A stretch of DNA of 57,263 nt from a virus (Duplodnaviria > Caudoviricetes): IMG/VR virus record IMGVR_UViG_3300042114_000075, positions 1 through 57,263 of that record. One strand, 5' to 3'. This document shows positions 27,866-43,684 of the stretch, piece after piece; the first letter of the stretch is position 1, and each line of letters begins with the position of its first letter. The notes beneath the pieces are model-generated. The model did not search any database. It was not told the DNA's origin and saw only the letters and a list, made by a program, of their open reading frames with translations. Made by a program: the position numbers and the translations under genes.

Positions 27866-28711
27866 ATGGAATTTAAAAAGAAACATTTAAAGGAAATAAT
27901 CGATACAAATGGCGACCTAATTGGAACGGATGCCATACCAACAAATGATGCAAATGCAGATACTGCTGCTCATGGTACAACCGACCAAAATGCTAAAATA
28001 GGACAACAACCATTCAGGTATGATATGTTGGGTCGTTTCGGCTTTACGTTAATGCCATTCATGGAAGGTGTTGAAGAAAACGATGGTCAGGCGGCACTTG
28101 TTAATGACTTAGCCAAATTAATGTATGATAAGTACATGTCAACAATTGAGTATTATTACAAAAATCCGAATAAGTTAAAATCTGATTTTAGGGTGCATTC
28201 TGAACATGATTTTGAAAGTCAGCCGGAACATAATAAGAAAATTGATTTTGATTTAGCAAAAGATATTGTGAAAATTGTTCAGAAGCATTTCGAAGATGCA
28301 TTTAAAGAACCACAACAAATTGATGAATCATTTGATTTAACAATACCTTTTGATGATAAAATCAAAGAAATACTGAGAAATCTACTTAGGGGAAGTACTT
28401 ACGATAAAACAGACATACTTGACCAAAGAATAGACCAATTACTTGCCGTAAATGCAGTCTGGCTTGAAAAAGCAAAACAGATGTATGGTGCAGAAGAAAT
28501 TGCAAAAAAGTTAATCAAATATGAAGAGAACTTAAATGAAATCGATATGATTGAAGATAAGATGCTCGGCAAAAGGGGTGAAGATGAAATGACCAAAAAA
28601 ACTGATGATAATGGTGTTAGGTCAAAGAAACTTCAAAAGATTGCTGGTCTAATAAATAAATTGGAAAAGAAAGATATAGATAAACTTATTAATTTGTTGG
28701 AGAGGAAATGA
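27866..28711 (+). CDS. Hypothetical protein, possible head-internal protein
   Basis: Charged helical protein with several hydrophobic-x-E motifs (LKE, IDE, LNE, LLE). Confidence 0.6.
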   Translation: MEFKKKHLKEIIDTNGDLIGTDAIPTNDANADTAAHGTTDQNAKIGQQPFRYDMLGRFGFTLMPFMEGVEENDGQAALVNDLAKLMYDKYMSTIEYYYKNPNKLKSDFRVHSEHDFESQPEHNKKIDFDLAKDIVKIVQKHFEDAFKEPQQIDESFDLTIPFDDKIKEILRNLLRGSTYDKTDILDQRIDQLLAVNAVWLEKAKQMYGAEEIAKKLIKYEENLNEIDMIEDKMLGKRGEDEMTKKTDDNGVRSKKLQKIAGLINKLEKKDIDKLINLLERK

Positions 28712-28896
28712 AAAAATTAAATACTTGTGAATTTATCGATAAGGCATTAATTATTCATAAACATGAATACGATTATTCGTTGGTCGATTATGTGAACTCA
28801 GAAACAAATAATTATCATTTACTTCGAATAGGATTTAACGAAATAAATGAGATTGATAAAATATTAGATTCATATGAACCAATATTTAAAAGATAA
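28708..28896 (+). pseudogene. Internally deleted homing endonuclease remnant (same family as 42122-42878)
   Basis: N-terminal EFIDKALIIHKHEYDYSLVDY joined directly to C-terminal NNYHLLRIGFNE..IDKIL. Confidence 0.65.
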
Positions 28897-29623
28897 AACC
28901 TATATAATACCACCAGACGTACTTAAAGTTATTGAAATAGCAAAAGCATCAAGTCCTGATGGTAATGGTATTAAACGTGCTAATTATCTGCTTAAAAACG
29001 GTGTGGTAACATATCATGTTCTTAAGCGTTTGAAGAATTTCTTCGACCATTTTGATGCCAATACGGAGGATAAGAACCAACATGCTCTTGCTGGTGGTGA
29101 ATTGATGCGTTCTTTCGTTGAGAGAACATTAAATGCCAACAGGGATGCTGTTAGAAGGTCAAAAACTGCCAGAGCAATGCCATACCAAACGCCAAGGCTT
29201 ACCGAAGCTAAAGCTGAGAAGAAAAAAGAAATTGTTAAAAATGCTATTGCAATCATTGTTGATAAGGACAATAAGATTTTACTATTAAAACGTGCTGATG
29301 TTAAAAATGGTTGGGGAAATAATCAATATGGTTTAGTTGGGGGTGGTATTGAAAAAAATGAGACACCGCAACAAGCAGTTGAAAGAGAAATTGAGGAAGA
29401 AACAGGATTGAAAATTAAAAAATTTCATAAGACCTTTAAAATTCAAAGAAATCCCAATACTATTGAATATGTATTTGCTTGTAGATATAGTGGTGAGCCT
29501 ATTGATGTTACATTGAATGATGAACATGTTAATTATGGATGGTATGATATTAGTGAAATTATTTATTTAGATACTGTTCCAAATTTAAAAGGATATATAA
29601 CACTATCTTTCACTAAATATTAG
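28874..29623 (+). CDS. NUDIX hydrolase with N-terminal extension
   Basis: Nudix box GGGIEKNETPQQAVEREIEEETGL; RLTEAK linker before the domain. Confidence 0.88.
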   Translation: MNQYLKDKTYIIPPDVLKVIEIAKASSPDGNGIKRANYLLKNGVVTYHVLKRLKNFFDHFDANTEDKNQHALAGGELMRSFVERTLNANRDAVRRSKTARAMPYQTPRLTEAKAEKKKEIVKNAIAIIVDKDNKILLLKRADVKNGWGNNQYGLVGGGIEKNETPQQAVEREIEEETGLKIKKFHKTFKIQRNPNTIEYVFACRYSGEPIDVTLNDEHVNYGWYDISEIIYLDTVPNLKGYITLSFTKY

Positions 29624-29626
29624 ATT

Positions 29627-29960
29627 ATGATAATTTGTGAAATATATAAAATATTAAATTCTAAAACTAATAAAGTTTATATTGGTAGTTTAATTAATGT
29701 CAATAAAAGAATAAATAAGCACTTTAATGAACTAAGAAAAAATAAATACCACAACAAACACCTTCAATTTTCGTGATAATCATCTAGACTATAATGGCGA
29801 AAATTCGCCAAGAGCCAAATTAACCAATGAAATTGTATTGAAAATTAGAGAAGAATATAATAAAAATAAATCAACATATGTTGAATTAGGATTAATGTTT
29901 GGCGTTGACAAACGAAATGTTGGAAAAATTATTAAAAGAGAAAGATGGAAAAACCTATAA
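29627..29960 (+). pseudogene. Decayed GIY-YIG homing endonuclease
   Basis: MIICEIYKILNSKTNKVYIGS..R..KH..LRKNKYHNKHLQFS* then GENSPRAKLTNEIVLKIR..KIIKRERWKNL*. Confidence 0.8.
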
Positions 29961-29964
29961 TTAC

Positions 29965-29972
29965 GTATTTAT
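29965..29972 (+). promoter_or_regulatory. GTATTTAT putative late promoter
   Basis: Upstream of ATG 30006. Confidence 0.6.
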
Positions 29973-30005
29973 CATAAATAACTTAAAATATTAACACAAA
30001 ACAAA

Positions 30006-30245
30006 ATGAGTAGATTAGAAGACATTAGCTTACCATTCAGAGAATGCACAATAGCTAAGAACGATTACGATAATAATGACGCTTACGTTGCTGGACACCC
30101 TGACGCATTATCAACGGGTGATGAATTGGGTAAAGGTGAAATGAATGGCGAAGTTGGAAGTGCAACCGACATTAAAACCAGAAGTGTTTTATTGTCAAAA
30201 AATAGGTATAATAAAAACAGAGAATATAACGCTGGTACTGCATAA
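30006..30245 (+). CDS. Small hypothetical protein
   Basis: 79-aa ORF after promoter motif and A-rich leader. Confidence 0.65.
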   Translation: MSRLEDISLPFRECTIAKNDYDNNDAYVAGHPDALSTGDELGKGEMNGEVGSATDIKTRSVLLSKNRYNKNREYNAGTA

Positions 30246-30246
30246 T

Positions 30247-31119
30247 ATGTTGAATGAGCTAAAAATATTGTTTGATAACATCAAAACCTTTCGCCATTTA
30301 ATAACGGAGGCAGTAGGTCAGGAGGACATGGTTAAGTATATTGAAAACCATGAGCTTGTCTATATCTACTATGCTGGTGATGGAAAGAACCCAAGAGGTC
30401 AGCGAACAATAAGGCCGTATGTTTTAGGTACAAATACTTCTGGTCATTTGGTGATTAGAGCATGGCAGGAAAAAGGTAGAAGTGCTGACTTCATGAATGC
30501 TCCAACACGAGAGCCAAGTGTTGAACACGACTATTGGGATACCAGTAAGGGCAAAGTAGCTGGATGGCGTATGTTTAGACTCGATAAGATTGAAAAATTA
30601 TATCCTATAGGGAGAAAGTTTAACAATCCTGATGGTACTGTGATGATACCAGATAAATATAAAGAAGGTTCTGATGCTGACATACCTAATATTATTGCAT
30701 ATGTTTCAACTAAAACAGAGCCAATTACTGAACCTACACCGGTAAGCGGTACGACAAAAGCCGTTCCTGCAACATGGGGTGATAAAAATACTCGCAATAT
30801 TACAGCTAATGAGGTGACTATGTTACGTAACATAGCTAGGGATGTTTATAAGGAAAGAATTGGTAAATTTTATGTTGCTGTCAATGGTAATGGTGAATTT
30901 GTTGTAGTTCGTGACAAAAGTATTAACAAAGTACCAAAAAATGCTGTTGTGGGCAGTTTAACTGGTTTATATGATAAATTGGTTAATAAAAATGTTGAAC
31001 CAGACCAACAATTCTTTAAAGCAGCCAAGCAAAAATTTGACTCCGAAACTAAAAATCAACAGAAAAATACGGAACAACCAACAATTCCTTTTGAAAAGAA
31101 ATCTTTTTTTAAACCGTAA
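30247..31119 (+). CDS. WYL-domain protein
   Basis: VYIYY.G....GQRTIRPYVLG..VIRAWQ..GWRMFRLDKI; start ATG 30247 just after previous stop. Confidence 0.75.
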   Translation: MLNELKILFDNIKTFRHLITEAVGQEDMVKYIENHELVYIYYAGDGKNPRGQRTIRPYVLGTNTSGHLVIRAWQEKGRSADFMNAPTREPSVEHDYWDTSKGKVAGWRMFRLDKIEKLYPIGRKFNNPDGTVMIPDKYKEGSDADIPNIIAYVSTKTEPITEPTPVSGTTKAVPATWGDKNTRNITANEVTMLRNIARDVYKERIGKFYVAVNGNGEFVVVRDKSINKVPKNAVVGSLTGLYDKLVNKNVEPDQQFFKAAKQKFDSETKNQQKNTEQPTIPFEKKSFFKP

Positions 31120-31120
31120 C

Positions 31121-31128
31121 GTATTTAT
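31121..31128 (+). promoter_or_regulatory. GTATTTAT putative late promoter
   Basis: 13 nt before ATG 31142. Confidence 0.65.
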
Positions 31129-31141
31129 AAAAAATTATAAA

Positions 31142-31813
31142 ATGGCAGACAGGGTTAATTTAAACTTACTAAAGAATGAAATCGACAACCGTAAAAGGGA
31201 AAAGAATCAAATTTCAACAAATCCTAATGGTGTTTTCACTACAACGCCAACACGTGATGAGTTCCTGAGTGGATTACTTGAATCTTTTCAAACAGGTAGA
31301 GATACACATTCATCTGTATTAATTAAAGAAGTCGTAAATAAAGCAGCGGAGAAAATTGGTGAGCCTGCTCCAATGCGCAACACAGCAGTATTACCAATAT
31401 CAAATTCATCACCACAGCCACATAGAATATCAAATGTTGATATGTCGATAGAAAGGGAAGAACAATTATATATCGACCTTGAAAGAAAAAGAAAATCAAC
31501 AGTTATTGAATCAATCGAAGGTTTTAATAAGACACCACAGGTTGGTGCTCCTATGAATAATTATCAGCCACAATCTGCTCCAATGCAGTTAAACGAAGCA
31601 TATCTTACTGAAAACGTTAAGAAAATCGTCAATAATTATTTGATTGAGAATTTCGGACCAGTTGTTGAAGAAGCAATAAAGAGTACGATTCTTGAAATGT
31701 ATGCAGTTGAAAGGATAAAAGAAGTTCTGCAAGAAAATAAAGAACTGGTACGAACAGTAGTCTATGAAGTGTTTAAAGAAATACGTGAAAAACAAAATGC
31801 AAAGAAAGTGTAG
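31142..31813 (+). CDS. Hypothetical helical protein
   Basis: Start MADRVN at 31142; QLNEAYLTENVKK motif; helical C-terminus. Confidence 0.65.
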   Translation: MADRVNLNLLKNEIDNRKREKNQISTNPNGVFTTTPTRDEFLSGLLESFQTGRDTHSSVLIKEVVNKAAEKIGEPAPMRNTAVLPISNSSPQPHRISNVDMSIEREEQLYIDLERKRKSTVIESIEGFNKTPQVGAPMNNYQPQSAPMQLNEAYLTENVKKIVNNYLIENFGPVVEEAIKSTILEMYAVERIKEVLQENKELVRTVVYEVFKEIREKQNAKKV

Positions 31814-31832
31814 GCAACTACACTTTTTTTTT
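31805..31832 (+). terminator. Rho-independent terminator
   Basis: AAAGTGTAG-GCAA-CTACACTTT plus T run. Confidence 0.85.
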
Positions 31833-31844
31833 ACCATTATTTCT

Positions 31845-31852
31845 GTATTTAT
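31845..31852 (+). promoter_or_regulatory. GTATTTAT putative late promoter
   Basis: After terminator, 17 nt before ATG 31870. Confidence 0.65.
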
Positions 31853-31869
31853 GCATATAGTATAATTAT

Positions 31870-34800
31870 ATGACATACGATGAATTTAAGAATTTCAAAC
31901 CACAGTTTGAAGCAATAAGGTCTTTTGCTGGTAGAATAGAAGCTGCCAAACAATATTTTGGCAAACCAATTGGTAGTGGTAGTGGTAGAATGGTGTTTAG
32001 TGTTGACGATGACAAGGTATTGAAATTGGCAAAAAACGCTAAAGGCATTGCACAAAACGAAGCCGAAACAGGCATTGGGTACTATCATGATACTCAACAC
32101 ATTGTAACAAAAGTATTTGATTCTGATGATAATAACAGTTCGTGGCTGGTTTCCGAAAAGGGCAAAAAGGTAAATGAAAGAAGAATCAAAGAGTTAACTG
32201 GTATTCCAAGTTTAAATGATTTATACATGTATCTTAGAAATTTTACCGAGCAAAATAATGGCAAGAAAAAGATGTTTGGACAATCAGAAGAAATTGTTGA
32301 CCTTCTCAATGAGAATGAATTTGCACAAGATTTAGATAATTTTATTGCTAATTATAACCAATCTGCAGGTGATATGGGCAGACCAAGTTCGTATGGCGAA
32401 GTTCTTCGTGATGGTCAACCTTCAATAGTTTTAACTGATTATGGATTAAATGATGAAGTTTATAATACATACTATGCACCAAAGAGACAGGCTTATCGAA
32501 TGTATGAGTTATATAACTTTGCAGATGGCAATGATGATATACTTTCAGATGCTGGCGGTGGTATGGACATTAGACATGGCATGTGGGCGCAAATGCCTTA
32601 TGGCGTTGGTGATGGTGATGGGGTTATAAATGAAGAGTTTGTGCATTTTGTTTCAAACAGGGACAAATATCCCAATATTCCAATGCCAAGTATGCCTTAT
32701 ATTGTTGAAGGCTTCCACGACATTGTAAACAATTTAAAAGAAATACTTGATAATCATAAAGATAAGAAAGGTTTTTATAAAAATTTATTAATTCTCCAAG
32801 ATTATTTAATCAGACAAAAGTTTTACGATAGAGAGCCGTTGGCACTTGAAGAATATTCTATTGGTAAAAAAGAAGTTCTAAACGAAGTAACTTACGATAG
32901 AGAAACTGCCGATGAAATAGCCAAGGAAGTTGCTGCAAAGAAAGGACTAAGTGCTCCAAAATATATTGGTGGTGGCTTATTTGGATATGCGTATGATATC
33001 GGCAATAATTTAATATTAAAAATAACCAATGATAATAGTGAAGCGTTTGAAAACATGGAACTTCTTGGCAAACCATTAAAATATATTGCAAAGCCATATA
33101 ATGTTTTTCAAATTAAATCACTTTCAAGATTCACTGGTAGGATGTATGCTATCGTATTGGAAAAACTCAGAACCGATGAATCATCATTTGAAGCCAGAAT
33201 GAAAAGGCTAAAATATGTTTTTGAGAAAATATTGAAAGAAAGTATGGTTTCCGTTATTTTAACATACGTAAATGGAAACAATGGCTATGTTGATACTGAT
33301 AAAGTTGAAAAGTACCTAACTAAAAACCCACAGGATATGGAGTTCTTTAACGCATTGCTAAATATTGCCAAAGAACTGAAAAAATATGGTGTTGAAAGTG
33401 TAGAGTATACAAATCCAAAAAATCTTGGTTATACTAAAGATGGTGATATAGGACTTTTTGATGTCGGCTTTACTGATTTAACATTAAATCCAAAGCCAGA
33501 ACAAATTGATTTATATGAATTTGGTGGTGATTCGCTATATTCACACACAGATAGTATTGGTGGCGATGAATTTCCAACATACAATACAAATGATACTTCG
33601 CCTTCAATTCAGAATGACCTGAATGCCAATTCAGCCATGTATAACGAAGACCTTGATTATAATCGTGTTAGTGATGCCACTCAGGATGAATATGTTATTG
33701 ATGAAAGAGTTATGTCTTCAATGGCTGGTAGCAGTACTGTTGATGTTAAGAAGAAATGTAGATTAGCAGGCAATGGTAATACAAGTACTGCATGTAATCA
33801 GGGTGATATTAGTAATTTGAACATCAAACCATTAAGAGAAATAATTGCTTTAGATTCACCAATCGGTAGTGATGGATGGAAGTCGTATAAAATTATGAAT
33901 GATGGTCAACCTGTTGGTGAAATGGAATTGACAGCATATCATAATCATAAGAATTATATTCAGTTGAGTAAAATTTTCATAAATAAAGACCAAAGACATC
34001 AAGGATATGCCCAAGATGCAATGGAACTATTAATCAACTATGCCGATACCAATAAAAAAATATTGGTATTAACACCTGATAATGTTTGGGGTGCAAGTAA
34101 AGAAAAACTAAAAAAATGGTATAAGACATTTGGTTTTGTAATGAATAGCGGGAGAAATACTGATTTTACTACAAGAGAATCAATGTATAGACTTCCAAAG
34201 GGTATGAAATTTGGTCAGTCGTTACACGAAGAACTTCTTGGTACTATTGACTATGAAGATGAAGATTTTAAAGACCCGATTGAAGCATTTAAAAATCCCA
34301 AATCAATTAAAAATATGAAACCCGATATTAGGGGAGTTATTGATAGCAAAACTGGTGATTTTTATGTTGCAAATGCAGTTAATTTTTTACATGCTGCACT
34401 TAATTTTTGGCTTAATAATAAATTAGGATTTAATTATGCTACTGATTTTAATTTAATATATCAGAATCCGTTTAAAATTGTTCCAGTTCAAAGAGACGAC
34501 AGTACAAATGTATTTAAATTAGGTGAATTGTATACAAGTGCGTTTGATGCTGATGAAATGGAAAAACTGATGCCACAAATTCAAAAAGTTTTGGATATGG
34601 CTAAAGCAAAAAATCCCGAAATTGAATTTAGTACTGAGGTAATCGACACACCAACATATCCGTTGAGAGAGGATATTGATGCCAGTGAAGCATATAGGGA
34701 TGAAGACGGATTGCAAACAATTATTGACGGAAAACGAAATATTGCTGGCTTTGTAACGTATAACAGAAAAGATGTTATTCGGAAGTTGGAAGATACGGGA

Positions 34801-36792
34801 CTAAATATACTTCCACTTACTGGAAACCCACATGGGTTAGTAATTGTATTTAATGACAGAGGCAGAGAAAATGCCATGAAGTTATGGAAATACGCAACAT
34901 CTAAAGGTGGTTATTTTGAAGATAATACACCAGAAGAAGCACGTTTTATTGGTAAGATGCTCCAATATACTGATGATTCAATAAAACGTTTTATTCATAG
35001 AATATATGATGAGAACGGTCAAAGAAGAAAAAAAATATATAATGAAGAAAGTCACGTCATAAATATAAATGAATATCCACAACAAATGGTAAAGGCTTAT
35101 GGTAAAACTGGTCTATATGATAAGGAGGATATGGATGCTATTTTATCAGTAACTGGTGGAGACCCATATACTAAATGGATTGCAGATATTTTTTATTATT
35201 TGACAAATCGTTATAATAAAAAAACGGCTACGCCAACAAAATTAACTGAAAGGGACAGGCAAATTCTTGTGGATGCTCATGAAAATATAAAAAGATATGA
35301 TAAAAATATCATACCCATTCACGATTTATATGCCCAAGAACATAATGCACATCCATTAGATAAAATGAATGATTTGAGAACCAGAGAGTTAATTATTGAA
35401 AAATTAAGAAAATTTCCAAGCATTTTACTTCGTAATTTAAGAGCAGATATAAGAGTGGAAAGAGACCATTATGAGTTAAATGAGTTATTCCAAACAGTTA
35501 AAGAAATTCAAAATATTTTAAAACTATTGGAACAAGTAAAACCGGAAAATAGGGAAAAGATTTATAAGAAAGTGTTTTCAAGTGCCAACGATACTTTTGC
35601 TGGCATAAAGAAAAGGCTTGATGATACAACAATACCATATCTTTCACAGGGTTTGGAGCGTGAAGATATTATTAAAAAAGTAGATGATATGGGTAATGAA
35701 GCCGAAATTTTATATGATAACAATAATATTTTGGTTGTGAAGATTATGAGTGCAGAAGCAATGGGATACATTGGTTGTAGCTCACAATGGTGTTTTGCAT
35801 CAAATCCAGAACACTATTGGGACAATTATACAAATCATGGTTTTGCAACAATCGTGTTTAATTTTAATGAACCAGAAAGCGAACCAAATAGAATGGTTGT
35901 TGTATTGGAAGATGGTAGTGTTTATGGCATGTATAATGAATATATAGAAGATGGTTATCAATATCTTAGTGATATTGGTGTGAATGATGTGATAAATCAA
36001 GACGTTAAAGATTATACCGAAGTTGATAAACATTTCAGCAAAATTCCACGCATGGGTGAAGTGAAAAATTTCAAAGAAAGTGTTGGTGATAAATATGATG
36101 AGAAACGTTTCAATGTGAAACCAGAGTTCAGCGATTTTGAAGACAAATATTCTGATTATCTTGGTAAACAAGCACAGGACGAAGTGGTGTATGACGATAC
36201 TAATATGGGAGGTACGTTGAAAATTATAAAGAATCCCAAATCATTATCCAATATAGGTCCTAACGTCAGAGGTGTTATTGATAGGGAAGGAAATTTTTAC
36301 ACGGAACAAAAAGTATCAGGTAAAGTACATAATGCAATTCTTGGTGTTTTAGAAGATTTGAAATTAATATCGGAAAATCGGAATTGGACTGAGGTTTTAC
36401 CAGTTAATTTCATTACTGTGATGCGATTATATAATACTAATGACATATATCTCGGTGAATCGAACACGATGATGACACCAACGGAAGATAGAGACCCACA
36501 TTATTATGGTGAAGGATATTGGGAAACTTTTCCAACATATGAAGAAGCAGAGCCAGTCTTTCAGAGTTTTATGAATTCAGCAAAGGCTAAAAATCCAAGG
36601 ATTAACTTCATAAATAAAAACATTGTTTACACCGAATATATAAAAGAATATAATAATTCTGATAATGGTGTTGATGGCTTAGAAAATAGCAGTACTTTTG
36701 CAGCCGAAATTCCAGTAACTAATTCAAGTGAATTAATGAAAGAAGAAATTGAAATTAAATATAATATTAAAGAGGCAAGACAATTAATGTAA
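31870..36792 (+). CDS. 1640-aa polyvalent protein: two kinase-like domains, GNAT acetyltransferase, two NPKS domains, other unknown domains
   Basis: IGSGSGRMVF..VLKLAK..LTDYG; IGGGLFGYAY..ILKIT..PKNLG..LFDVG; KIFINKDQRHQGYAQ..KWYKTFGF; IGCSSQWCF domain. Confidence 0.75.
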   Translation: MTYDEFKNFKPQFEAIRSFAGRIEAAKQYFGKPIGSGSGRMVFSVDDDKVLKLAKNAKGIAQNEAETGIGYYHDTQHIVTKVFDSDDNNSSWLVSEKGKKVNERRIKELTGIPSLNDLYMYLRNFTEQNNGKKKMFGQSEEIVDLLNENEFAQDLDNFIANYNQSAGDMGRPSSYGEVLRDGQPSIVLTDYGLNDEVYNTYYAPKRQAYRMYELYNFADGNDDILSDAGGGMDIRHGMWAQMPYGVGDGDGVINEEFVHFVSNRDKYPNIPMPSMPYIVEGFHDIVNNLKEILDNHKDKKGFYKNLLILQDYLIRQKFYDREPLALEEYSIGKKEVLNEVTYDRETADEIAKEVAAKKGLSAPKYIGGGLFGYAYDIGNNLILKITNDNSEAFENMELLGKPLKYIAKPYNVFQIKSLSRFTGRMYAIVLEKLRTDESSFEARMKRLKYVFEKILKESMVSVILTYVNGNNGYVDTDKVEKYLTKNPQDMEFFNALLNIAKELKKYGVESVEYTNPKNLGYTKDGDIGLFDVGFTDLTLNPKPEQIDLYEFGGDSLYSHTDSIGGDEFPTYNTNDTSPSIQNDLNANSAMYNEDLDYNRVSDATQDEYVIDERVMSSMAGSSTVDVKKKCRLAGNGNTSTACNQGDISNLNIKPLREIIALDSPIGSDGWKSYKIMNDGQPVGEMELTAYHNHKNYIQLSKIFINKDQRHQGYAQDAMELLINYADTNKKILVLTPDNVWGASKEKLKKWYKTFGFVMNSGRNTDFTTRESMYRLPKGMKFGQSLHEELLGTIDYEDEDFKDPIEAFKNPKSIKNMKPDIRGVIDSKTGDFYVANAVNFLHAALNFWLNNKLGFNYATDFNLIYQNPFKIVPVQRDDSTNVFKLGELYTSAFDADEMEKLMPQIQKVLDMAKAKNPEIEFSTEVIDTPTYPLREDIDASEAYRDEDGLQTIIDGKRNIAGFVTYNRKDVIRKLEDTGLNILPLTGNPHGLVIVFNDRGRENAMKLWKYATSKGGYFEDNTPEEARFIGKMLQYTDDSIKRFIHRIYDENGQRRKKIYNEESHVININEYPQQMVKAYGKTGLYDKEDMDAILSVTGGDPYTKWIADIFYYLTNRYNKKTATPTKLTERDRQILVDAHENIKRYDKNIIPIHDLYAQEHNAHPLDKMNDLRTRELIIEKLRKFPSILLRNLRADIRVERDHYELNELFQTVKEIQNILKLLEQVKPENREKIYKKVFSSANDTFAGIKKRLDDTTIPYLSQGLEREDIIKKVDDMGNEAEILYDNNNILVVKIMSAEAMGYIGCSSQWCFASNPEHYWDNYTNHGFATIVFNFNEPESEPNRMVVVLEDGSVYGMYNEYIEDGYQYLSDIGVNDVINQDVKDYTEVDKHFSKIPRMGEVKNFKESVGDKYDEKRFNVKPEFSDFEDKYSDYLGKQAQDEVVYDDTNMGGTLKIIKNPKSLSNIGPNVRGVIDREGNFYTEQKVSGKVHNAILGVLEDLKLISENRNWTEVLPVNFITVMRLYNTNDIYLGESNTMMTPTEDRDPHYYGEGYWETFPTYEEAEPVFQSFMNSAKAKNPRINFINKNIVYTEYIKEYNNSDNGVDGLENSSTFAAEIPVTNSSELMKEEIEIKYNIKEARQLM
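36671..36700 (+). promoter_or_regulatory. Bacteroidota-type promoter embedded in 3' end of the 1640-aa gene
   Basis: TTG (36671-73), 19-nt spacer, TACTTTTG (36693-700) followed by CAGC. Confidence 0.45.
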
Positions 36793-36828
36793 TTTTGACC
36801 CATTGCGTATCTTTTGTGAGGTTCTATA

Positions 36829-36836
36829 CTATTTAT
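36829..36836 (+). promoter_or_regulatory. CTATTTAT late-promoter variant
   Basis: Upstream of ATG 36878. Confidence 0.5.
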
Positions 36837-36877
36837 GGTCATGGAAAATAAATGGAGTAATAACGAAATTAATCTAC

Positions 36878-39800
36878 ATGGGTAAAATAGAAGAATTTAT
36901 AGCAGTTATGCGTAGTAAGCCATTTATTAAATCATTAATCGATAATAAATCTGAGATTTTTGCTGTTGGTGGAGTTGTACGTGATTTAATATTAAATAAA
37001 CCGAATAAGGATATTGATTTAGTTGTGAGAAACAAGTCTATTGATGAATTAATATCTGAATTGGAAAAGTTTGGTAGGGTTGATGTTGTGGGTAAATCAT
37101 TCGGAGTTATAAAATTTATTGATTCAGAAGGAACTGATTATGATATTGCATTGCCACGACAAGATATAAAAAATGATGTTGGTGGATATCGTGGTTTTGA
37201 TGTGCAAAGTGATGCTAATTTATCTATTGGTGCTGATTTAAGCAGAAGGGATGCGAAGTTTAATGCAATGGCAATAAATTTAAATACTGGAAAATTTTTA
37301 GACCCATTAGGTGGATTAAAGGATATTGAAAATAAACAAACATCGGCAGCAAATCCACAAGCATTTTTAGATGACCCACTGAGGATGTTGAGAATGGTGA
37401 GTTTTAGTTCACGTTTTGGTTTCATAATTGAGCCAAGAACAATGAAAATGATTCAAGACACTGCCGAAAGAATAAAAGAGATAACACCCCAAAGAATTTT
37501 AATTGAGTTCGATAAGATAGTTAAAAAGGGAAATAAAAGGATTGCAGCACAACTGTTGAAAGACACTGGATTATTTAAACACATATTTGGGTTTGATATC
37601 CAGCAATCAACGATTGATAGGAGTCCGTTTGAAGACACACGTACAATGGGTGAATTTTTATATCTATTGACACGTCTTCTGCCAGACCCTGCAACATACT
37701 TTAAGACAAACATGAGGGGTGATATTGATACCTACAAAGAAATTAAAGCACTTAACATGGGTTTGTCAAATGAAAATGAAAACCCAATTGCTTTAAGGTC
37801 AGTTGCTTACAATATGTATGGAACATCACCACAGTCATTACAAAGTCAGATACTTCCTACTGCTCTTAGGACAGCAGCTGATGAATTATTGTCAGGTAAA
37901 TTTCCAAAGACACTTAGTGAAATGGCTGTAAATGGCAATGATTTGCTTGAAAAGGGTTTGAAGGGTAGCGAAATTGGTCAGGTATTAAAAAAAATGCTGT
38001 TGAAAGTATATTCAGGCAAAGTTGCTAATGATAAGGATGCTCTTTTGGCGTTACTTGATAACAATGACTTAGATGAAGCATTTGGCAGAAGAACAGATGA
38101 TGACGAAGAACTTGAAAGAAAATTATTAATCCAAAAGTATGACGAAATTGGAGAAATTGCTGGATATGTTTTAAGTGTTAATCGTGATGGGAAGAGGTAT
38201 TTGCCGATATTTATAAATCCAAAATCGCTTAAATATTTTGAAGCAAATGTTAAAGCACTTGGCAACATAAAAGGCAACATATATGTTGTATTGGAAAACG
38301 GTGGATTTATTCATGGTTATATTGCTGTTGGAGCTGGACTTTTTGGTGATAACAATGGAATTTATAATAATTATGATACCTATGCTACCCTAAACAGAAT
38401 TGATAAGACCGATACATTTGAAATAGGTGAAATGACGTTGGAAAGTGCTATTAATAATGATGCAATGTATAATGTTGATGCAATTTTGGATGCAATTAAA
38501 CAAAAGAATCCACAATATGACTACCTTAACACCAACAGAGAAATTGATAAAATAAAAGCAATGAGTGAAGGAGTTGGTGATAAGTATGCTGAAAAGAAAT
38601 TTGGAATACCTGATGCTGGTAGAGAGTTTGAAGACAAGTATCAACGACACAGATTAGTAATAGATGGTGAAGAACCATTTGGTTATGTAAGTGGCTTTAT
38701 TGACTGGAAAGGCAATATGTCACCAGAAAAAGTACCTGTTTATAAAAACCCTAAGTCGTTAATTAGGTTTGATTATGATGTAAGAGCAATTTCGGATAAT
38801 CAAGGCAATTTATATGTTGCACTGGTTAATGAAAGTTTTAATCATGGTGAAATGGCTGCACATATTGGTTTAGTTGGTGGTGATGATACTATATATGATA
38901 GAATCACTGACTACCTTTTATTGAACAGGGTTAAGGATAAAGATGTTTTTGGGTTCGCTGATAGTAGTGAAGAAGAATATAACCAGAGCAATGAAGACCG
39001 TAAACGTGTCATTGAATTACTTGGTCTGGTTGGTAGAAGAAATTCGCAATTCAAATTCATTCCTAAGTATTATGAGGAAATTACTGGTGATAAAAATATT
39101 GATGAAAGTCTTAATGAAACCATAAAGGGTGGTACTTACATAATGTATCATGGCAGTGACCATGCTTTTAATAAGTTCACCGATGAATTTGTTGGTGGTG
39201 AAAATGCTAATGACCAAGAGGGTGCTGGAATTTATTTCACAACTTCCGAAGAAGAAGCTAATAGGTATGGTAGATACATCTACAAAGTAGAATTGAAACC
39301 AAGAAAACTAATTGATGTTGCAAATAAAAGAGTTGTTTCAGCAACTAACATAGCCAAATTAATTAAAATGTCTCCCACATGGAAAGAAGATGTTTTAAAT
39401 TGGGATGAAAGTGTAATGAGAGGCTTGGCAGAAGCAATTAAAGGTATTTACAATTATTCTGACAACGAAAAAGACTTGTATCAGCAAATTGAGCATGACT
39501 TCTTTAGGTATCAGCCACGATTATATGTTCAAGGTATGACAAAATTGGGATTTGATGGTCAGTATATTAAAAAAGATTATGAAGGTATTACACATATCAT
39601 TGTTTATAATCCTGAAATCATTACCATACTTGAAAGCAATACAGAACAATTAAACGAAGAAGAAATGGGCAGAGTATTATATAGTGCCATCGTACTTGAC
39701 AACCAATCGAAGCAGAAACTAATTAAAGTGTTTAAGCCTATGATTCCAAAGGATTGGGAAATTATTGCACATCACATGACATTAAACATGGGTGCTATTG

Positions 39801-40924
39801 ATAAGAAGTTTGAACAGGATTTAGGCCGTGATATTGGGTTAAGTGTCATTGACTATGCTATAGACGATAAGGTTATGGCAGTTGGTGTTGAAGGCTATCC
39901 AACCAACAAAGGGAAAGCACATATAACACTTGCTGTAAATAGGGGCGATGGTGGCAAACCAATGATGTCAAATAATTTAACCGATTGGAAGCCATTAGAT
40001 TTCCCATTAAAATTAACTGGAACAGTAACAGAAGTAACGAATGCGCCAAAACTTAATGAAAATGTTGAAAATAAAAAAACAAAAGTTAATTATGGCTGTT
40101 TGATGACATTTCTTTCAATACCTAATTGGGAAAAAATTACATCAATCGTAAAACCAAAAGATTTATATGATAAAAAAGGATATGGCATTGAAAAAGAGCC
40201 ACATGTGACGATATTATATGGATTTCATGACGATGTTGATGTAAACGAAGTTTTTGAAAAATATAAGAACAATCAAGAACTGAAACCAATTGAACTTGAA
40301 TTAACAGGTATATCATATTTTGAAACACCAGAATTTGATGTAGTAAAATTTGATGTTCAATCCGATGTACTGACCAAAATGAATAAGATTATGAAAAGTT
40401 TTCCACATACATCGGATTTTCCAGATTATCATCCACATATGACAATTGCATATGTTAAAAAGGGACAGGGTAGCAAATATGTGAAAAAGTTCGAAAAAAA
40501 TAAAAAATTATTTGGAAACGAATTGGTTTATACCGAAAAAGAAAATAGTGAAAAAGAAAGTAGCGGAAAAGATGGCTATGTTTTAAATTTAGATACGTCA
40601 AACAGTATAAATGAATCACACGAAAAATCAAAATATACTAATACTAAGGATGCATTAATAAGGTCAAAATCAATTTCTAAAGAAATGAAAGAATTGATTG
40701 GTAAATATTTAATAAGTGGAAGCGAATATCATGAAGGTGGACATTTATATGAATTAAGTAAGCCTAATGCATTACGTGAAAAATCAACAAAGGCTAATGG
40801 TGTTAGCATGGGTGCAGATAAAAATGGTTTTTATGTTTATACTCATAGGGCAAGAAGCAAATCACACCCTACACCAGAGCAAATCACAATAAAAGAGATT
40901 GAATTTATAGAAAGTACTGGTTAA
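36878..40924 (+). CDS. About 1350-aa polyvalent protein: CCA-adding/poly(A) polymerase-family nucleotidyltransferase, two NPKS domains, ART-like domain, two 2H phosphoesterases, THRARSKS domain
   Basis: VGGVVRD..DIDL..DLSRRD..DDPLRMLR; YHGS..GIYFT..GFDG; HHMTL..HITL; EPHVTILYG..HPHMTIAY; start MGKIEE at 36878. Confidence 0.85.
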   Translation: MGKIEEFIAVMRSKPFIKSLIDNKSEIFAVGGVVRDLILNKPNKDIDLVVRNKSIDELISELEKFGRVDVVGKSFGVIKFIDSEGTDYDIALPRQDIKNDVGGYRGFDVQSDANLSIGADLSRRDAKFNAMAINLNTGKFLDPLGGLKDIENKQTSAANPQAFLDDPLRMLRMVSFSSRFGFIIEPRTMKMIQDTAERIKEITPQRILIEFDKIVKKGNKRIAAQLLKDTGLFKHIFGFDIQQSTIDRSPFEDTRTMGEFLYLLTRLLPDPATYFKTNMRGDIDTYKEIKALNMGLSNENENPIALRSVAYNMYGTSPQSLQSQILPTALRTAADELLSGKFPKTLSEMAVNGNDLLEKGLKGSEIGQVLKKMLLKVYSGKVANDKDALLALLDNNDLDEAFGRRTDDDEELERKLLIQKYDEIGEIAGYVLSVNRDGKRYLPIFINPKSLKYFEANVKALGNIKGNIYVVLENGGFIHGYIAVGAGLFGDNNGIYNNYDTYATLNRIDKTDTFEIGEMTLESAINNDAMYNVDAILDAIKQKNPQYDYLNTNREIDKIKAMSEGVGDKYAEKKFGIPDAGREFEDKYQRHRLVIDGEEPFGYVSGFIDWKGNMSPEKVPVYKNPKSLIRFDYDVRAISDNQGNLYVALVNESFNHGEMAAHIGLVGGDDTIYDRITDYLLLNRVKDKDVFGFADSSEEEYNQSNEDRKRVIELLGLVGRRNSQFKFIPKYYEEITGDKNIDESLNETIKGGTYIMYHGSDHAFNKFTDEFVGGENANDQEGAGIYFTTSEEEANRYGRYIYKVELKPRKLIDVANKRVVSATNIAKLIKMSPTWKEDVLNWDESVMRGLAEAIKGIYNYSDNEKDLYQQIEHDFFRYQPRLYVQGMTKLGFDGQYIKKDYEGITHIIVYNPEIITILESNTEQLNEEEMGRVLYSAIVLDNQSKQKLIKVFKPMIPKDWEIIAHHMTLNMGAIDKKFEQDLGRDIGLSVIDYAIDDKVMAVGVEGYPTNKGKAHITLAVNRGDGGKPMMSNNLTDWKPLDFPLKLTGTVTEVTNAPKLNENVENKKTKVNYGCLMTFLSIPNWEKITSIVKPKDLYDKKGYGIEKEPHVTILYGFHDDVDVNEVFEKYKNNQELKPIELELTGISYFETPEFDVVKFDVQSDVLTKMNKIMKSFPHTSDFPDYHPHMTIAYVKKGQGSKYVKKFEKNKKLFGNELVYTEKENSEKESSGKDGYVLNLDTSNSINESHEKSKYTNTKDALIRSKSISKEMKELIGKYLISGSEYHEGGHLYELSKPNALREKSTKANGVSMGADKNGFYVYTHRARSKSHPTPEQITIKEIEFIESTG

Positions 40925-41090
40925 TATTGATAGTTTACAAGAGAAAATTGAAAGGGATTTGGGTAAGGGGTTAACCAACAGTTAACAAAATCTTGAACAA
41001 TTTTACACATTATTTAACAATAGTTCTTTGAAATAATTAATTTGAAAAAAGTGATATTTTTAATTAATATATACTTATTTTAGCCAATGA

Positions 41091-41098
41091 GTATTTAT
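41091..41098 (+). promoter_or_regulatory. GTATTTAT putative late promoter
   Basis: Intergenic, about 90 nt before ATG 41186. Confidence 0.5.
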
Positions 41099-41185
41099 TA
41101 ATAAAATAATAATCAGCAATTTCATTTATGTTATAATTTTTCATGATTTTGTTGTTTTTATGGTAAATACTAAAAGTTTTGTGAA

Positions 41186-42091
41186 ATGACTACGGATAAT
41201 AAAATAAAAAGACTCCAAGTTTTTGATTTTGATGGAACACTTGCTAACACTGTTTCTCCAGAAGAAGGTAAACCAGCTTGGGAGAAATATTATGATAAGC
41301 CTTTTCCACATAAAGGATGGTGGAGTAAACCAGAAAGTTTAGACTTAGGAGTATTTGACATCAAAATGTTTCCAAGTTTGCTTAACCAGTTGAAACGTGA
41401 AGTTTCAACACCAGATACGTATGTGATAATTCTCACATCACGTCTGGAAAGATTACGTCCACAACTCAAAGCAGTTCTGGATGTAAATGGTGTACATGTT
41501 AATGCAATTGACATGAAGCACAACGAATTAACTAAAGGTGAAAAAATCCTGAAATATATCGACCATTTACCTGACTTGGAAGAAGTCAGCGTTTATGATG
41601 ATAGAGAAGGTGACATTGAATCATATGAAGCAGTTAGGGATAGAATACCAGAAGGTATTTCCTTCAACATATACATAGCTGATAATGGTAAGTTCGGGTT
41701 GGCAGAGAATAAGCTATTGAATATCATTAAGGAAGAAATCAAGAGCTTTACAGGCGATAATGAAATTTATCATGGCACACATACTGGTGCAGCTATTAGC
41801 ATTCAACGTGAAGGTGGTATGTGACTTAATACTGAACCATATATTTCATTTACCAGCAAACCACGTGTAGCATATTATTATGCTGAAATGAAAGGTGGTA
41901 CAGATAGAGCAGTTATTTTAAGAACAAAATTAACAAGCGACTTTAAGCAATCACCAAAGTTTAATAAAAAAGATGGTTATGAATGGATAACAACTCGTGA
42001 AATTCCGTCTAATGAATTAGAAGTTCAAACTAATCAGGGTTGGATACCACTAAACAATTGGGACTTTATCGACAAAGCAATAAAAAATTAA
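41186..42091 (+). CDS. HAD phosphatase (Swiss-Army-knife RNA-repair-like) fused to an ART-like domain interrupted by an in-frame TGA at 41822-41824
   Basis: VFDFDGTL..WWSKPESL..ILTSR..YDDR; then IIKEEI linker, YHGT..*..ISFTS..YYAE..YEW in one frame. Confidence 0.75.
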
Positions 42092-42098
42092 AATACCT

Positions 42099-42106
42099 GT
42101 ATTTAT
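42099..42106 (+). promoter_or_regulatory. GTATTTAT putative late promoter
   Basis: 15 nt before ATG 42122. Confidence 0.6.
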
Positions 42107-42121
42107 AATAAAATATTTACT

Positions 42122-42878
42122 ATGGGAAAGAAATCAACAAAAGAAGAATTTATATTGAATGCCGTAAATACACATGGTGAGAAATATGATTATTCAAATG
42201 TTGAATATGTTGGAAGTAAGATTAAGGTTATTATTATTTGTAAAGAACATGGCAAATTTCTACAAAGACCAAATGACCATTTAACAGGATATGGATGTAA
42301 AAAATGTCAGTACGATAAAACATCGAAAGAAAATAAATTCACTACTGAAAATTTTATCAGTAGAGCAAATAAACTACATGTTAATAAATTTGATTATTCG
42401 TTGGTAGTATATGATGGTTATGAAAAGAAAGTGAAAATTATTTGTAAAAAACATGGTATTTTTGAACAAACACCCCATAACCATTTGAGTGGTACTGGCT
42501 GTCATTCTTGTTGTGAGTCTCGTGGAGAAAAGAAGGTTGCTGAAATTTTAACAAAAAATAATATTGAATTTATTAGAGAATTTACATTCAGTGATTTAAA
42601 GGATAAATCTAACTTATTTTATGATTTTTATTTACCAAAGCACAAATTATTTATTGAATATCATGGAATTATTTATTGAATATCATGGAATCCAACATTG
42701 TACACCAGTTGACTTTTTTGGTGGAAGAATTGAATTTGTTGAAACACGAAAACGTGATGTGATTAAATATAAATATGCAATAAATAATGGTTATAAGATG
42801 ATGTGGATATTTAACATTCCACCCAATCACATAGATGAAACATTAATGAACAAGTTAAAAGAAATATCTGTTATATGA
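42122..42878 (+). pseudogene. Homing endonuclease (DUF723-like Cys/His repeats plus PD-(D/E)xK nuclease) frameshifted by a 22-bp duplication
   Basis: Two H..KYDYS.V.Y..KV.IIC..HG.F.Q.P..HL.G.GC repeats; SRGE..YDFYLP..IEYHG.QH. Confidence 0.85.
42645..42688 (+). repeat. Perfect 22-bp tandem duplication
   Basis: AATTATTTATTGAATATCATGG twice. Confidence 0.95.
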
Positions 42879-43684
42879 GTAAAATATCACCCAAATATTT
42901 ACCACAAATCAGTGCACCGATTGATGAAGTTTTAGCAAAACTTAGCGAAATTGATTGTGATTATGAGTATATCAAAGTAAATCCAGAAGATTTGAAAGCA
43001 TCCCAACCATTTACACTATCAGATGGCGTATATGATTCAATAAATGATGATATGAATCCAATTTGGATTGATATTGATTTAAACATTATTGATGGGCATC
43101 ATTCATGGGTTAAATCTCTACATGGTGGTATGTTATTGACCGCAGTTAAAATAAATGTCAATTTTAAAGATGCTTGTAGGTTGTTGAATAAAATTCAGGA
43201 TATCTATGAATACGAAGATGCACGTTCAGTTGAAGAAGTTGAATCACAAGACGCTATCAATTATTATGGCGGTGACGAAAATCAGTTCTTAAATAATCTG
43301 GAAGAAAGTAATGCTGAAATTCAACAAGAAATCCCAAGTAAAAACGAACAAACCGTAATAGCATACCGAAAAGAACCGATTAAGGAAAATTCTGCTGTTG
43401 GTAATTTCTTCACGCTTCAACCAATGGAAGGTTATGGCAAGTATCAGATTGAATTTGAAAACCTTCTTGACACACATGTGTTGGGAATGACATATAAAGA
43501 CGGTCAGCAGCCAGCCGAAATGCTTGCTAAAATATGGTTTCCGAATGTAAATTTCGAAAAATTGGGAGAACAATATAATATGCCACCCATCAATTTAAAA
43601 AACAAAGCAGTTGCGCAAAAAGCAATGAAAATGGGTTTTGATGGTATTAAATATGGCGATACATTAATTCAGGGATTAAAATAA
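42875..43684 (+). CDS. ParB/Srx-like N-terminal domain plus possible ART-like C-terminal domain
   Basis: VNPEDLKASQ..PIWID....IIDGHH; C-terminal GNFFTL..FENLLD..GFDGIKY. Confidence 0.6.
   Translation: MSKISPKYLPQISAPIDEVLAKLSEIDCDYEYIKVNPEDLKASQPFTLSDGVYDSINDDMNPIWIDIDLNIIDGHHSWVKSLHGGMLLTAVKINVNFKDACRLLNKIQDIYEYEDARSVEEVESQDAINYYGGDENQFLNNLEESNAEIQQEIPSKNEQTVIAYRKEPIKENSAVGNFFTLQPMEGYGKYQIEFENLLDTHVLGMTYKDGQQPAEMLAKIWFPNVNFEKLGEQYNMPPINLKNKAVAQKAMKMGFDGIKYGDTLIQGLK

Follow-up and report, generated by a model that had tools for sequence, protein, structure and literature searches.

The stretch of DNA analysed here, called the window throughout, is a 57-kb fragment (57,263 nucleotides (nt), the entire IMG/VR record IMGVR_UViG_3300042114_000075) of a large myovirus-like phage with 28-36% G+C. 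Our subject is a block of genes at positions 27866-43684, in which two giant open reading frames (ORFs), P1640 and P1348, encode chains of separate modules whose joints carry a hydrophobic residue, any residue and Glu ([ILVMF]xE). The block sits between the gene for a family-B DNA polymerase (PolB, 1235 amino acids (aa)) and the baseplate genes, the gene order being tail-fibre genes, a helicase, a QueC-like gene, PolB, the block, a glycosyltransferase-like gene with an intein, and baseplate wedge genes; no tRNA genes were found in the window. No cultured phage is close, as the best match of PolB in the phage collection is only 25% identical and that of a kinase-like module 31%. A search with PolB gave nine related viral contigs (63-73% identity). 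Three related genomes (G001, G006 and G007) are rated complete by CheckV and are the complete relatives referred to below; six related contigs are incomplete. The same syntenic block is found in five relatives (G001-G005), in the order A281, NUDIX, WYL-like, D280, polyprotein(s), small 2H, HAD, I269 and x460, and the polyprotein modules are split and fused differently in each of them (1466 aa; 2370 aa; 1776 aa; 961 + 608 aa; 1387 + 394 aa).

A sequence-only reading of the block had noted that its recognisable domains are separated by hydrophobic-x-Glu, and had proposed a candidate new system of polyproteins that are packaged in the head, cut by a prohead protease and injected. All the peptides it quoted from the two giant proteins are present in the translations, in P1640 GVINEE at residue 251, EVLNEV at 335, VIDER at 609, PLREI at 654, SLHEE at 784, PLRED at 931, YNEE at 1057, ININEY at 1064 and NFKESVG at 1400, and in P1348 DLDEAF at 397, AMSEGVG at 561, NIDESLNET at 740, QLNEEE at 924, KLNENV at 1058 and SINESH at 1243; RLTEAK, LITEAV and IIKEEI are likewise found in the NUDIX, WYL-like and HAD proteins, respectively. 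The modules of the two proteins are given below, where a slash marks a predicted cut and the fractions are aligned homologues that keep the site.

31870-36792, plus strand: P1640, 1640 aa.
31870-32634, plus strand: P1640 residues 1-255, kinase-like module 1, ending INE/E; site kept in 36/39 homologues, N254 invariant and E255 nearly so.
32635-33705, plus strand: P1640 residues 256-612, a spacer, kinase-like module 2 and a polar linker, ending IDE/R; IDE kept in 50/55.
33706-33840, plus strand: P1640 residues 613-657, the 45-residue CNQGD module, with two Cys and sites on both sides, ending LRE/I; E657 kept in 47/50.
33841-34230, plus strand: P1640 residues 658-787, GNAT acetyltransferase (Pfam Acetyltransf_1, E 6.8e-5), ending LHE/E; site kept in 9/13.
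34231-34671, plus strand: P1640 residues 788-934, R module copy 1 ('NPKS'), an internal repeat, ending LRE/D; site kept in 27/29.
34672-36078, plus strand: P1640 residues 935-1403, modules X1 (935-1068, ending INE/Y) and X2 (1069-1403, ending FKE/S), limits from BLAST; sites kept in 6/8 and 19/22.
36079-36789, plus strand: P1640 residues 1404-1640, R module copy 2 (36079-36744, starting SVGDKY), with MKE/E at residues 1623-1625 and a 15-residue tail; E1625 kept in 5/6.
36878-40924, plus strand: P1348, 1348 aa from the ATG at 36878 (a TTG at 36803 would give 1373 aa).
36878-38077, plus strand: P1348 residues 1-400, CCA-adding tRNA nucleotidyltransferase (Pfam PolyA_pol, E 3.7e-19; PDB 1miv, E 9.4e-20), ending LDE/A; E400 kept in 11/15.
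38078-39118, plus strand: P1348 residues 401-747, R module copies 3 and 4, with sites MSE/G (564) and IDE-S-LNE/T (743, 747); E564 kept in 19/23, E747 in 5/7.
39119-39658, plus strand: P1348 residues 748-927, ART-PolyVal ADP-ribosyltransferase (Pfam PF18760, E 2.4e-7), ending LNE/E; E927 kept in 10/11.
39659-40615, plus strand: P1348 residues 928-1246, two 2H phosphoesterase modules (Pfam 2_5_RNA_ligase2, E 1.7e-9; Acb1, E 1.5e-7), the first (928-1061) ending LNE/N, with E1061 kept in 1/3 covered, and the second (1062-1246), Acb1-like, ending INE/S, with E1246 kept in 7/8.
40616-40921, plus strand: P1348 residues 1247-1348, C-terminal module, phrog_3666; joined to the HAD protein in G005.

The most likely start of P1348 is the ATG at 36878 and not the TTG at 36803, because relatives align from the ATG; the protein described earlier as 1350 aa long, in which all the quoted motifs are present, is thus probably one of 1348 aa. 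Of the domain calls made from inspection of the sequence, NUDIX, GNAT, CCA, ART, 2H and HAD are recovered by Pfam, WYL is weak and below the cut-off, and the two kinases are not recognised: the modules in question have no match in Pfam, PHROGs or NCBIfam, and we call them kinase-like on the basis of motif inspection alone (a Gly-loop and VLKLAK-type motifs). X1 and X2 have no family match in Pfam, PHROGs or NCBIfam, and a PDB sequence search with P1640 gave no matches. The R module, also without a family match, is present in four copies across the two proteins and in up to three in a relative; NPKS is found in all four copies and the start E/[SG][VI]GDKY in two of them. The sites quoted earlier are unequal. 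Most of them are conserved, EVLNEV (LNE at 337-339) is weak and kept in just 16/43 aligned homologues, and for YNEE the conserved site is the neighbouring ININE/Y (6/8). Cuts at the conserved sites would yield nine pieces from P1640 and seven from P1348, with computed masses of 1.9-44.7 kDa, the uncut proteins being of 190 and 155 kDa.

Some of the modules can be compared in their fused and free forms. Four of the five relatives encode the first 2H module as a gene of its own; in the window and in G004 it is fused, and there LNE stands immediately before the former start Met. The CCA enzyme is followed by [LV]xE 12-17 residues past the domain in 5/5 fused forms, whichever domain comes next, and the motif is absent from the sole stand-alone form, in G005. 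In 23 of 25 homologues scanned (the longest that fit the size limit, among 43) the CCA enzyme and the CNQGD module are part of one chain; in the window they are encoded by separate genes in different frames (36790-36880), and we therefore suggest that P1640 and P1348 arose by gene fission at a junction. The best match of the CCA module in the cultured collection, LR756504.1, was considered as a further polyprotein and set aside, as its CCA enzyme is a stand-alone gene of 388 aa.

By number alone the tripeptide is not remarkable. [ILVMF]xE occurs 37 times in P1640 (34.8 expected) and 32 times in the 1373-aa reading of P1348 (30.3 expected), and the comparison proteins PolB (29; 27.9 expected) and helicase (18; 15.0 expected) are similar. 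A bare list of such tripeptides therefore means nothing by itself, and a search for over-represented tripeptides that took no account of position was swamped by homologous motifs and uninformative. Where the alignments of homologues break off, the flanks have only a tripeptide in common, usually L/I-N-E. We took module boundaries (breakpoints) from alignment ends, fixed them before the motif was looked at, and counted a motif within 8 residues. In nine polyproteins from the window and G001-G005, [ILVMF]xE was found at 39 of 54 breakpoints supported by at least two alignment ends, where 19.9 were expected, and the control patterns gave 20 against 21.1 ([ILVMF]xD) and 11 against 14.2 ([AGST]xE). 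A larger set of 50 polyproteins (81,489 residues) consists of 43 of the 44 homologues with a CNQGD module, one near-duplicate having been dropped, together with P1348 and six chains from G001-G005. Here 341 breakpoints have the support of 15 or more alignment ends, and the motif was present at 300 of them, against 130.8 expected from the whole-protein background and 167.7 from shuffling the 19 residues around each breakpoint (z 15.7). The background expectation was approached by [ILVMF]xD (130 against 127.3), [AGST]xE (97 against 90.5) and [YW]xE (20 against 27.1). In the local shuffles, [ILVMF]xD (130 against 116.3) and [ILVMF]xxE (170 against 158.3) were both flat, and [ILVMF]E (104 against 174.6), [AGST]xE (97 against 126.5) and also [KRDNQ]xE were depleted. 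The earlier observation that hydrophobic-x-Glu separates the recognisable modules, and with it the proposed enrichment in linkers, is in this way confirmed for the placement of the motif, which is far above chance at boundaries, even if total counts are at chance.

The position of the motif is exact. In the BLAST alignments, the largest bin of alignment ends falls on the Glu (124) and the largest bin of alignment starts on the residue two before it (P3, Glu being P1; 102). In the logo of 301 unique sites, P3 is Leu (.50), Ile (.28), Val (.11), Met (.09) or Phe (.02), P2 is most often Asn (.35) or Asp (.17), and P1 is Glu. Judged from these aligned sites, the junction consensus [L>I>V,M]-[N,D]-E is the rule of the T4 prohead protease gp21, which cuts after L/I-X-E, and in T4 an Asp at P1 blocks processing and not targeting (PMC9026906). 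Homologous junctions are not all independent events, and clustering of the flanks is the answer we offer to this: the flanks of the 304 usable sites form 40 clusters upstream and 43 downstream, which occur in 114 combinations, with 19 different modules following the CNQGD module and 17 different modules preceding the CCA module.

The CNQGD module illustrates this best. A search with this stretch gave 44 polyproteins of 927-2490 aa with one copy each, located anywhere from residue 84 to residue 1850. In 44/44 it is followed by [LIMV]xE, beyond which the modules diverge, and in most cases (50/55 aligned homologues) it is preceded by another [LI]xE. Among 1.84 billion representatives, searched exhaustively, 162 proteins (clusters at 50% identity) matched it at E <= 0.001. 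We examined 150 of these, of which 136 were new and 115 fitted the regular expression for the module; 14 end too soon to judge, and in 88 of the 101 left the motif follows the module, standing exactly at +11 in 85 of these. A divergent subgroup (P0103, P0107, P0118, P0122 and others), with 'GDGTS' in the CNQGD loop, has Asp after the module, as in KPLKD/G. A shift of specificity from Glu to Asp throughout a lineage was considered and rejected, as Glu prevails at the other boundaries of these proteins (75 Glu, 14 Asp) and the change to Asp concerns that one site. The module has no Pfam match and nothing usable in the ESM Atlas. It is found once per complete genome, and the idea that it is a targeting tag common to several proteins is for this reason unsupported.

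All three complete relatives encode a protein above the Pfam cut-off for Peptidase_S77, the family of T4 gp21 (G001, E 1e-7; G006, 1.9e-19; G007, 1.6e-19). An intein-like insert of about 370 residues interrupts this prohead protease in G001; G006 and G007 lack the insert, and their protease is 233 aa long. Adjoining the S77 gene are a scaffold-like gene of 511-548 aa and a capsid gene, whose product is a homologue of T4-like gp23 and matches 2592 phage records. The scaffold-like proteins contain 30, 32 and 28 [LIVM]xE against 13.5-13.8 expected, each at the lowest p that the shuffles allow, and 19 aligned motif columns are conserved in all three. In the gp23-like capsid protein, 6 of 11 motifs lie in the first 66 residues (binomial 7e-4), and MINE/SSDS, just before a PVIRRVF block, is conserved in 3/3. 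By analogy with gp23, we would expect the propeptide cut at MINE/S. Another family of 261-265 aa adjoining the head genes (L038, 529-1326; homologues in L056 and L057) is dense in [LIVM]xE like the scaffold-like protein.

A promoter-like element, GTATTTAT, is over-represented in the window (20 vs 8.1 expected; 0/100 shuffles reach 20). Its distance to the start codon that follows is 13-63 nt, and in many cases, as in front of P1640, a terminator-like stem-loop precedes it:

31845-31852, plus strand: GTATTTAT element with the P1640 start 18 nt downstream; a stem-loop with a T-run lies ahead of the element.

In the window the element is found upstream of fibre and baseplate genes, D280, P1640, the HNH gene and x814, and P1348 follows 10-85 nt behind P1640. 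A polyprotein gene is preceded by it at 25-37 nt in 5/5 relatives, and three further genes have it in front of them in 3/3 complete genomes, namely the scaffold-like gene, one of 1537-1798 aa and the motif-dense one of 261-265 aa. The one-mismatch variant CTATTTAT is found upstream of A281, and the protease gene carries it in 3/3 complete genomes. There is no GTATTTAT before the helicase, the QueC-like gene or PolB, nor directly upstream of NUDIX, HAD and I269. The earlier claim that the block shares an element with baseplate and fibre genes thus holds for P1640 and D280 and fails for NUDIX, HAD and I269, with the variant at A281 in between. A scan of the window for sigma-70-type promoters was at chance (110 vs 98.8), and the distribution of GTATTTAT fits what would be expected of one late promoter class.

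We suggest that the block encodes phage polyvalent effector proteins joined by conserved [L/I/V/M]-x-E, which would be packaged, cut by the S77 prohead protease and injected, and we put the probability of this reading at roughly 0.6. It builds on the motif and its exact position at boundaries, on its conservation across unrelated flanks, and on the presence in complete relatives of the protease together with a motif-rich scaffold-like protein and a gp23-like capsid protein. The cargo would consist of kinase-like modules, a GNAT, a CCA-adding enzyme, an ADP-ribosyltransferase, two 2H phosphoesterases, a NUDIX hydrolase, a HAD phosphatase and several unassigned modules. Their genes would share GTATTTAT-type promoters with the head, fibre and baseplate genes, and the polyproteins would be incorporated into the prohead core, where the T4 gp21-type protease would cut after every junction Glu and leave about nine pieces of P1640 and seven of P1348. 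The single enzymes could then enter the next host with the DNA, there to repair tRNA and other RNA, remove signalling nucleotides and modify host proteins. Late timing, packaging, cleavage and injection, and the target of each enzyme, are in this scheme predictions from sequence. What had been proposed at the outset is supported in part: the linker enrichment, the S77 protease of the relatives and the shared element speak for it, while the analogy with phiKZ and the description as a new system, to which we return below, do not stand.

Several observations weigh against this reading. The window contig, which is the entire record, has no head genes, and the gp21-like protease that had been expected elsewhere in the genome is known only via relatives, 61-73% identical in PolB or sharing homologous polyproteins; Peptidase_S77 was also found in 0/6 incomplete related contigs, which at 27-61% completeness is uninformative. 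No T4-like N-terminal targeting sequence was recognised on the polyproteins, and the first 93 residues of P1640 are without a motif. The polyproteins have a conserved N-terminus, MTY.EF, which does no more than recall the T4 tag. At 41 of the 341 breakpoints there is no motif within 8 residues; some of these have one slightly farther off, some are ends of the kinase-like core and some are starts of R modules with Gln or Arg at P3. Among the distant CNQGD representatives, 13/101 lack [ILVMF]xE after the module, and in a position-based count on the larger set, 13 proteins have [LIV]-x-Asp at +11 and three another residue, their other junctions keeping Glu. The reverse pattern E-x-[ILVMF] is enriched at breakpoints too (235 vs 166.6 in local shuffles), which may reflect a preference at P2' or a structural feature; the excess fits the V/I preference at P2' in the site logo. 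[LIVM]xE is conserved within domain cores as well, for example LIE at residue 208 of P1348 in 35/35, and the motif alone therefore does not mark a cut. Finally, junction flanks are just modestly more polar than those of other motif copies (hydrophobic fraction 0.289 vs 0.340).

An alternative is that the tripeptide is not cut at all but kept at the joint for another reason, as a structural linker cap, a docking motif or a by-product of cassette recombination. The favoured hydrophobic residues at P2', the conserved copies inside folded domains and the subgroup with Asp at one site would all agree with an uncut joint, which we nevertheless regard as unlikely. The tripeptide is common to 40 upstream and 43 downstream families of unrelated flanks, its spacing and its Glu are specific, as the depletion of [ILVMF]E and the flat counts of [ILVMF]xxE and [ILVMF]xD indicate, and it is missing from the end of the stand-alone CCA gene. 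An origin at the level of DNA, either as a stop-start relic (TAAATG) in another frame or as a recombination joint, was tried and rejected, since the string fits only 3/15 window sites and the codons vary; from the varying codons we conclude that selection acts on the protein level.

Alternatively, the junctions could be cut outside the prohead by another protease, be it an embedded peptidase, another phage protease or a host enzyme, either in the producing cell or after delivery, in which case packaging would not be needed. Embedded peptidases have been proposed as a general solution for polyvalent proteins (PMC5512222), and X1, X2, the R repeats and CNQGD are without a family assignment and could harbour one. 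This appears to us rather improbable. No Pfam peptidase family was found in the 25 scanned homologues or in any of the window's proteins, MPTase-PolyVal (PF18818) and Trypsin_2 are each found in 0/3 complete genomes, and the sole unassigned module that is universal is the 45-residue CNQGD peptide. In addition, the motif equals the gp21 rule, and the scaffold-like and capsid proteins of the same genomes carry it where T4 cuts.

A third possibility accepts packaging and cleavage but no injected counter-defence cocktail: the pieces would be core or inner-body material, or the polyproteins would be enzymatically active while still uncut, late in the producing cell. D280, always directly upstream of the polyprotein gene, has 14 [LIVM]xE against 6.9 expected, and its 6/6 orthologues are among the most enriched of 115 ORFs. 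In density of the motif both it and the 261-265-aa family equal the scaffold, and the two families may on this account be disposable prohead core proteins; most fragments of the T4 scaffold exit the head (PMC9026906). For the effector modules themselves we think such a role distinctly improbable, as ART-PolyVal, Acb1-like 2H, NUDIX, GNAT and CCA are of the kinds for which delivery has been argued from genomic context (PMC5512222), and delivery of such enzymes has been demonstrated experimentally for T4 Alt (PMC9026906). That the pattern is an artefact of chance or composition in an AT-rich genome with a Glu-, Asn- and Leu-rich proteome is hardly credible, for while the overall motif counts do equal the expectation from composition, no control removed the enrichment at boundaries, neither the local-composition shuffles nor any of seven control patterns.

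The packaged and processed effectors that we favour have clear precedents. For polyvalent proteins, packaging and delivery together with the DNA were predicted in 2017 and likened to the polyproteins of RNA viruses, with release of the domains assigned to an embedded MPTase or a C-terminal assemblin-like peptidase (Iyer, Burroughs, Anand, de Souza and Aravind, 2017; PMC5512222). To call the block a new system was therefore an overstatement, as packaging, injection and proteolytic release of domains were all part of that proposal. Several features agree with the polyvalent proteins as that paper describes them. There are several effector domains per chain, with ART-PolyVal, GNAT, 2H/Acb1 and CCA found by Pfam in P1640 and P1348 and the same families in homologues; the architectures are variable mosaics, with modules fused or split differently in G001-G005 and 114 flank combinations; and the genes are near late or virion genes, here between PolB and the baseplate genes and with GTATTTAT in common with fibre, baseplate and scaffold genes. 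The paper also describes a special kinase family in the polyvalent proteins of Bacteroidetes and Verrucomicrobia phages. An embedded peptidase is, according to the same source, frequent and not obligatory in polyvalent proteins; in contrast, none was found here, and the junctions carry the motif of a separately encoded prohead protease.

The closest parallel is T4, whose internal proteins IPI-III and Alt are late-made effectors, including an ADP-ribosyltransferase, that reside in the prohead core, are cut by a Peptidase_S77 and are ejected; Alt is cut at both ends, and a capsid targeting sequence has been described (PMC9026906). The head module of the relatives is likewise T4-like, with a gp23-like capsid protein, an S77 protease and a motif-rich scaffold. 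However, each T4 substrate has a single domain and loses short propeptides at its ends (PMC9026906), whereas here up to about nine modules per chain would be separated by predicted internal cuts, and no N-terminal targeting sequence was recognised. The giant myoviruses phiKZ and SPN3US also have much head-internal protein that is cut after Glu, by the gp21-related gp175 and gp245 (PMC9026906, PMC10052503), but the analogy with phiKZ does not extend to the motif. The rule for phiKZ is S/A-X-E (PMC9026906), and small residues at P3 are not enriched here, [AGST]xE being found at 97/341 breakpoints against 90.5 (background) or 126.5 (local); it is T4 in particular that the pattern resembles. The cuts described for SPN3US, bar self-cleavage of the protease, make N-terminal propeptides and do not separate enzymes (PMC10052503). 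The Dar proteins of phage P1 and the virion RNA polymerase of N4 are large, packaged in the head and active on arrival, and the GNAT module of P1640 matches DarB-like proteins by tblastn; in these systems, unlike here, processing is by an MPTase domain or does not take place, as far as PMC5512222 describes them. Unlike in a polyprotein of the RNA-virus type, no protease domain was found by Pfam inside the chain.

The new part, as we see it from these alignments, would be punctuation by the motif of a prohead protease acting in trans, in a family of polyvalent proteins that appears to lack a peptidase of its own. Within the literature that our search covered, we found no description of prohead-protease motifs between the domains of polyvalent proteins. 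In the searched passages of PMC5512222 the word 'linker' does not occur and 'prohead' appears in the reference list only, and a review of jumbo phages (PMC7824862) mentions polyvalent proteins and never the prohead protease. The two proteins together hold 15 predicted cut sites. If the cuts are real, the way in which polyvalent domains with different targets are released without an embedded peptidase would be settled. The T4 paradigm of capsid targeting and processing would extend from short propeptides to true polyproteins, and for a large group of uncultured T4-like jumbo phages, of which 162 clusters (50% identity) carry CNQGD, sequence alone would suffice to tell which proteins are injected. 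The set of enzymes (CCA, 2H/Acb1-like, HAD_SAK, NUDIX, ART, GNAT and kinase-like) would point to pre-made RNA repair and anti-signalling at the time of DNA entry, and the arrangement suggests a natural design rule by which several cargo enzymes could be loaded into phage heads.

More tentatively, and with clear doubts, we speculate that the locus is a plug-and-play 'ejectome', in which any module placed between two [L/I]-x-E joints would be co-packaged, released by the capsid protease and injected. CNQGD, excised on both sides, would then be the single handle by which a chain enters the prohead (or else a peptide effector), and D280 a disposable partner in the core. Such an arrangement would explain why about 40 module families are freely shuffled, duplicated, split and fused at these joints, and it would be the counterpart in double-stranded DNA phages of the polyprotein strategy of RNA viruses, with the capsid maturation protease acting in trans.

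The smaller genes of the block, with their candidate sites, are as follows.

27866-28711, plus strand: A281, no known family, with an inserted module between IDE/S (28319-28327) and LNE/I (28532-28540); CTATTTAT variant upstream.
28874-29623, plus strand: N-terminal domain and NUDIX hydrolase (Pfam NUDIX, E 4.2e-20), candidate site LTE/A at 29198-29206; [LI]xE in the gapped linker in 6/6 orthologues.
30247-31119, plus strand: WYL-like protein (weak Pfam WYL, E 0.0053, below cut-off), candidate end of an N-terminal propeptide ITE/A at 30301-30309.
31142-31813, plus strand: D280 family, true start Met58, sites LNE/A (31589-31597) and LTE/N (31604-31612) in 6/6 orthologues; GTATTTAT at 31121.
41186-42088, plus strand: HAD_SAK phosphatase (41186-41824; Pfam HAD_SAK_1, E 1.2e-6), in-frame TGA at 41822-41824, the frame continuing into an ART-like domain; candidate site LAE/N at 41699-41707.
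42122-42679, plus strand: HNH homing endonuclease (phrog_559, E 1.3e-43), an insertion outside the effector set, between the HAD-ART gene and I269 and absent there in five relatives.
42875-43684, plus strand: I269, two domains, 'DGHH' in the N-terminal half, phrog_2859 the sole family above threshold; candidate linker site VEE/V at 43229-43237.

A linker [LIVM]xE is conserved in all six small proteins of the block other than the endonuclease, in 6/6 orthologues for five of them and in 5/6 for the HAD protein. In A281, [LI]xE precedes 'VVEDKM' in 6/6 (the window and five orthologues), and the extra module between two sites is present only in the window and G002. The true start of the WYL-like protein is Met35 of the listed ORF, where its orthologues begin, with [LIV]-[TSN]-E about 20 residues in (6/6), and the linker of I269 has [LIVM]-[EN]-E in 6/6 orthologues. 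D280 matches only 'hypothetical viral protein' clusters in the ESM Atlas.

In the HAD protein, L.E follows the HAD core in the 5/6 orthologues. Past the TGA the HAD frame stays open over about 88 codons, whose product, an ART-like domain with 'IYHGT', is a homologue of the C-terminal third of a 300-aa HAD-ART protein in G002, and the tblastn match to the latter crosses the TGA in a single frame. No other gene of the window has an in-frame TGA, and this one could be a nonsense mutation, a sequencing error or a read-through codon.

Three further observations concern the surroundings of these genes. The glycosyltransferase-like protein downstream of the block (44189-46633) is 460 aa long in five relatives, and the window copy has an insert of 348 residues that begins with Cys and holds a LAGLIDADG_3 domain (E 1.3e-9), for which reasons we regard it as an intein. 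In the fibre region, an ORF of 2586 aa (11135-18895) has one recognisable stretch, at residues of about 1576-1744, which matches head-decoration and virion-structural PHROGs. After the NUDIX gene, at 29627-29776, there is a remnant of 49 codons with a GIY-YIG-like start, 'IYKI...YIGS'.

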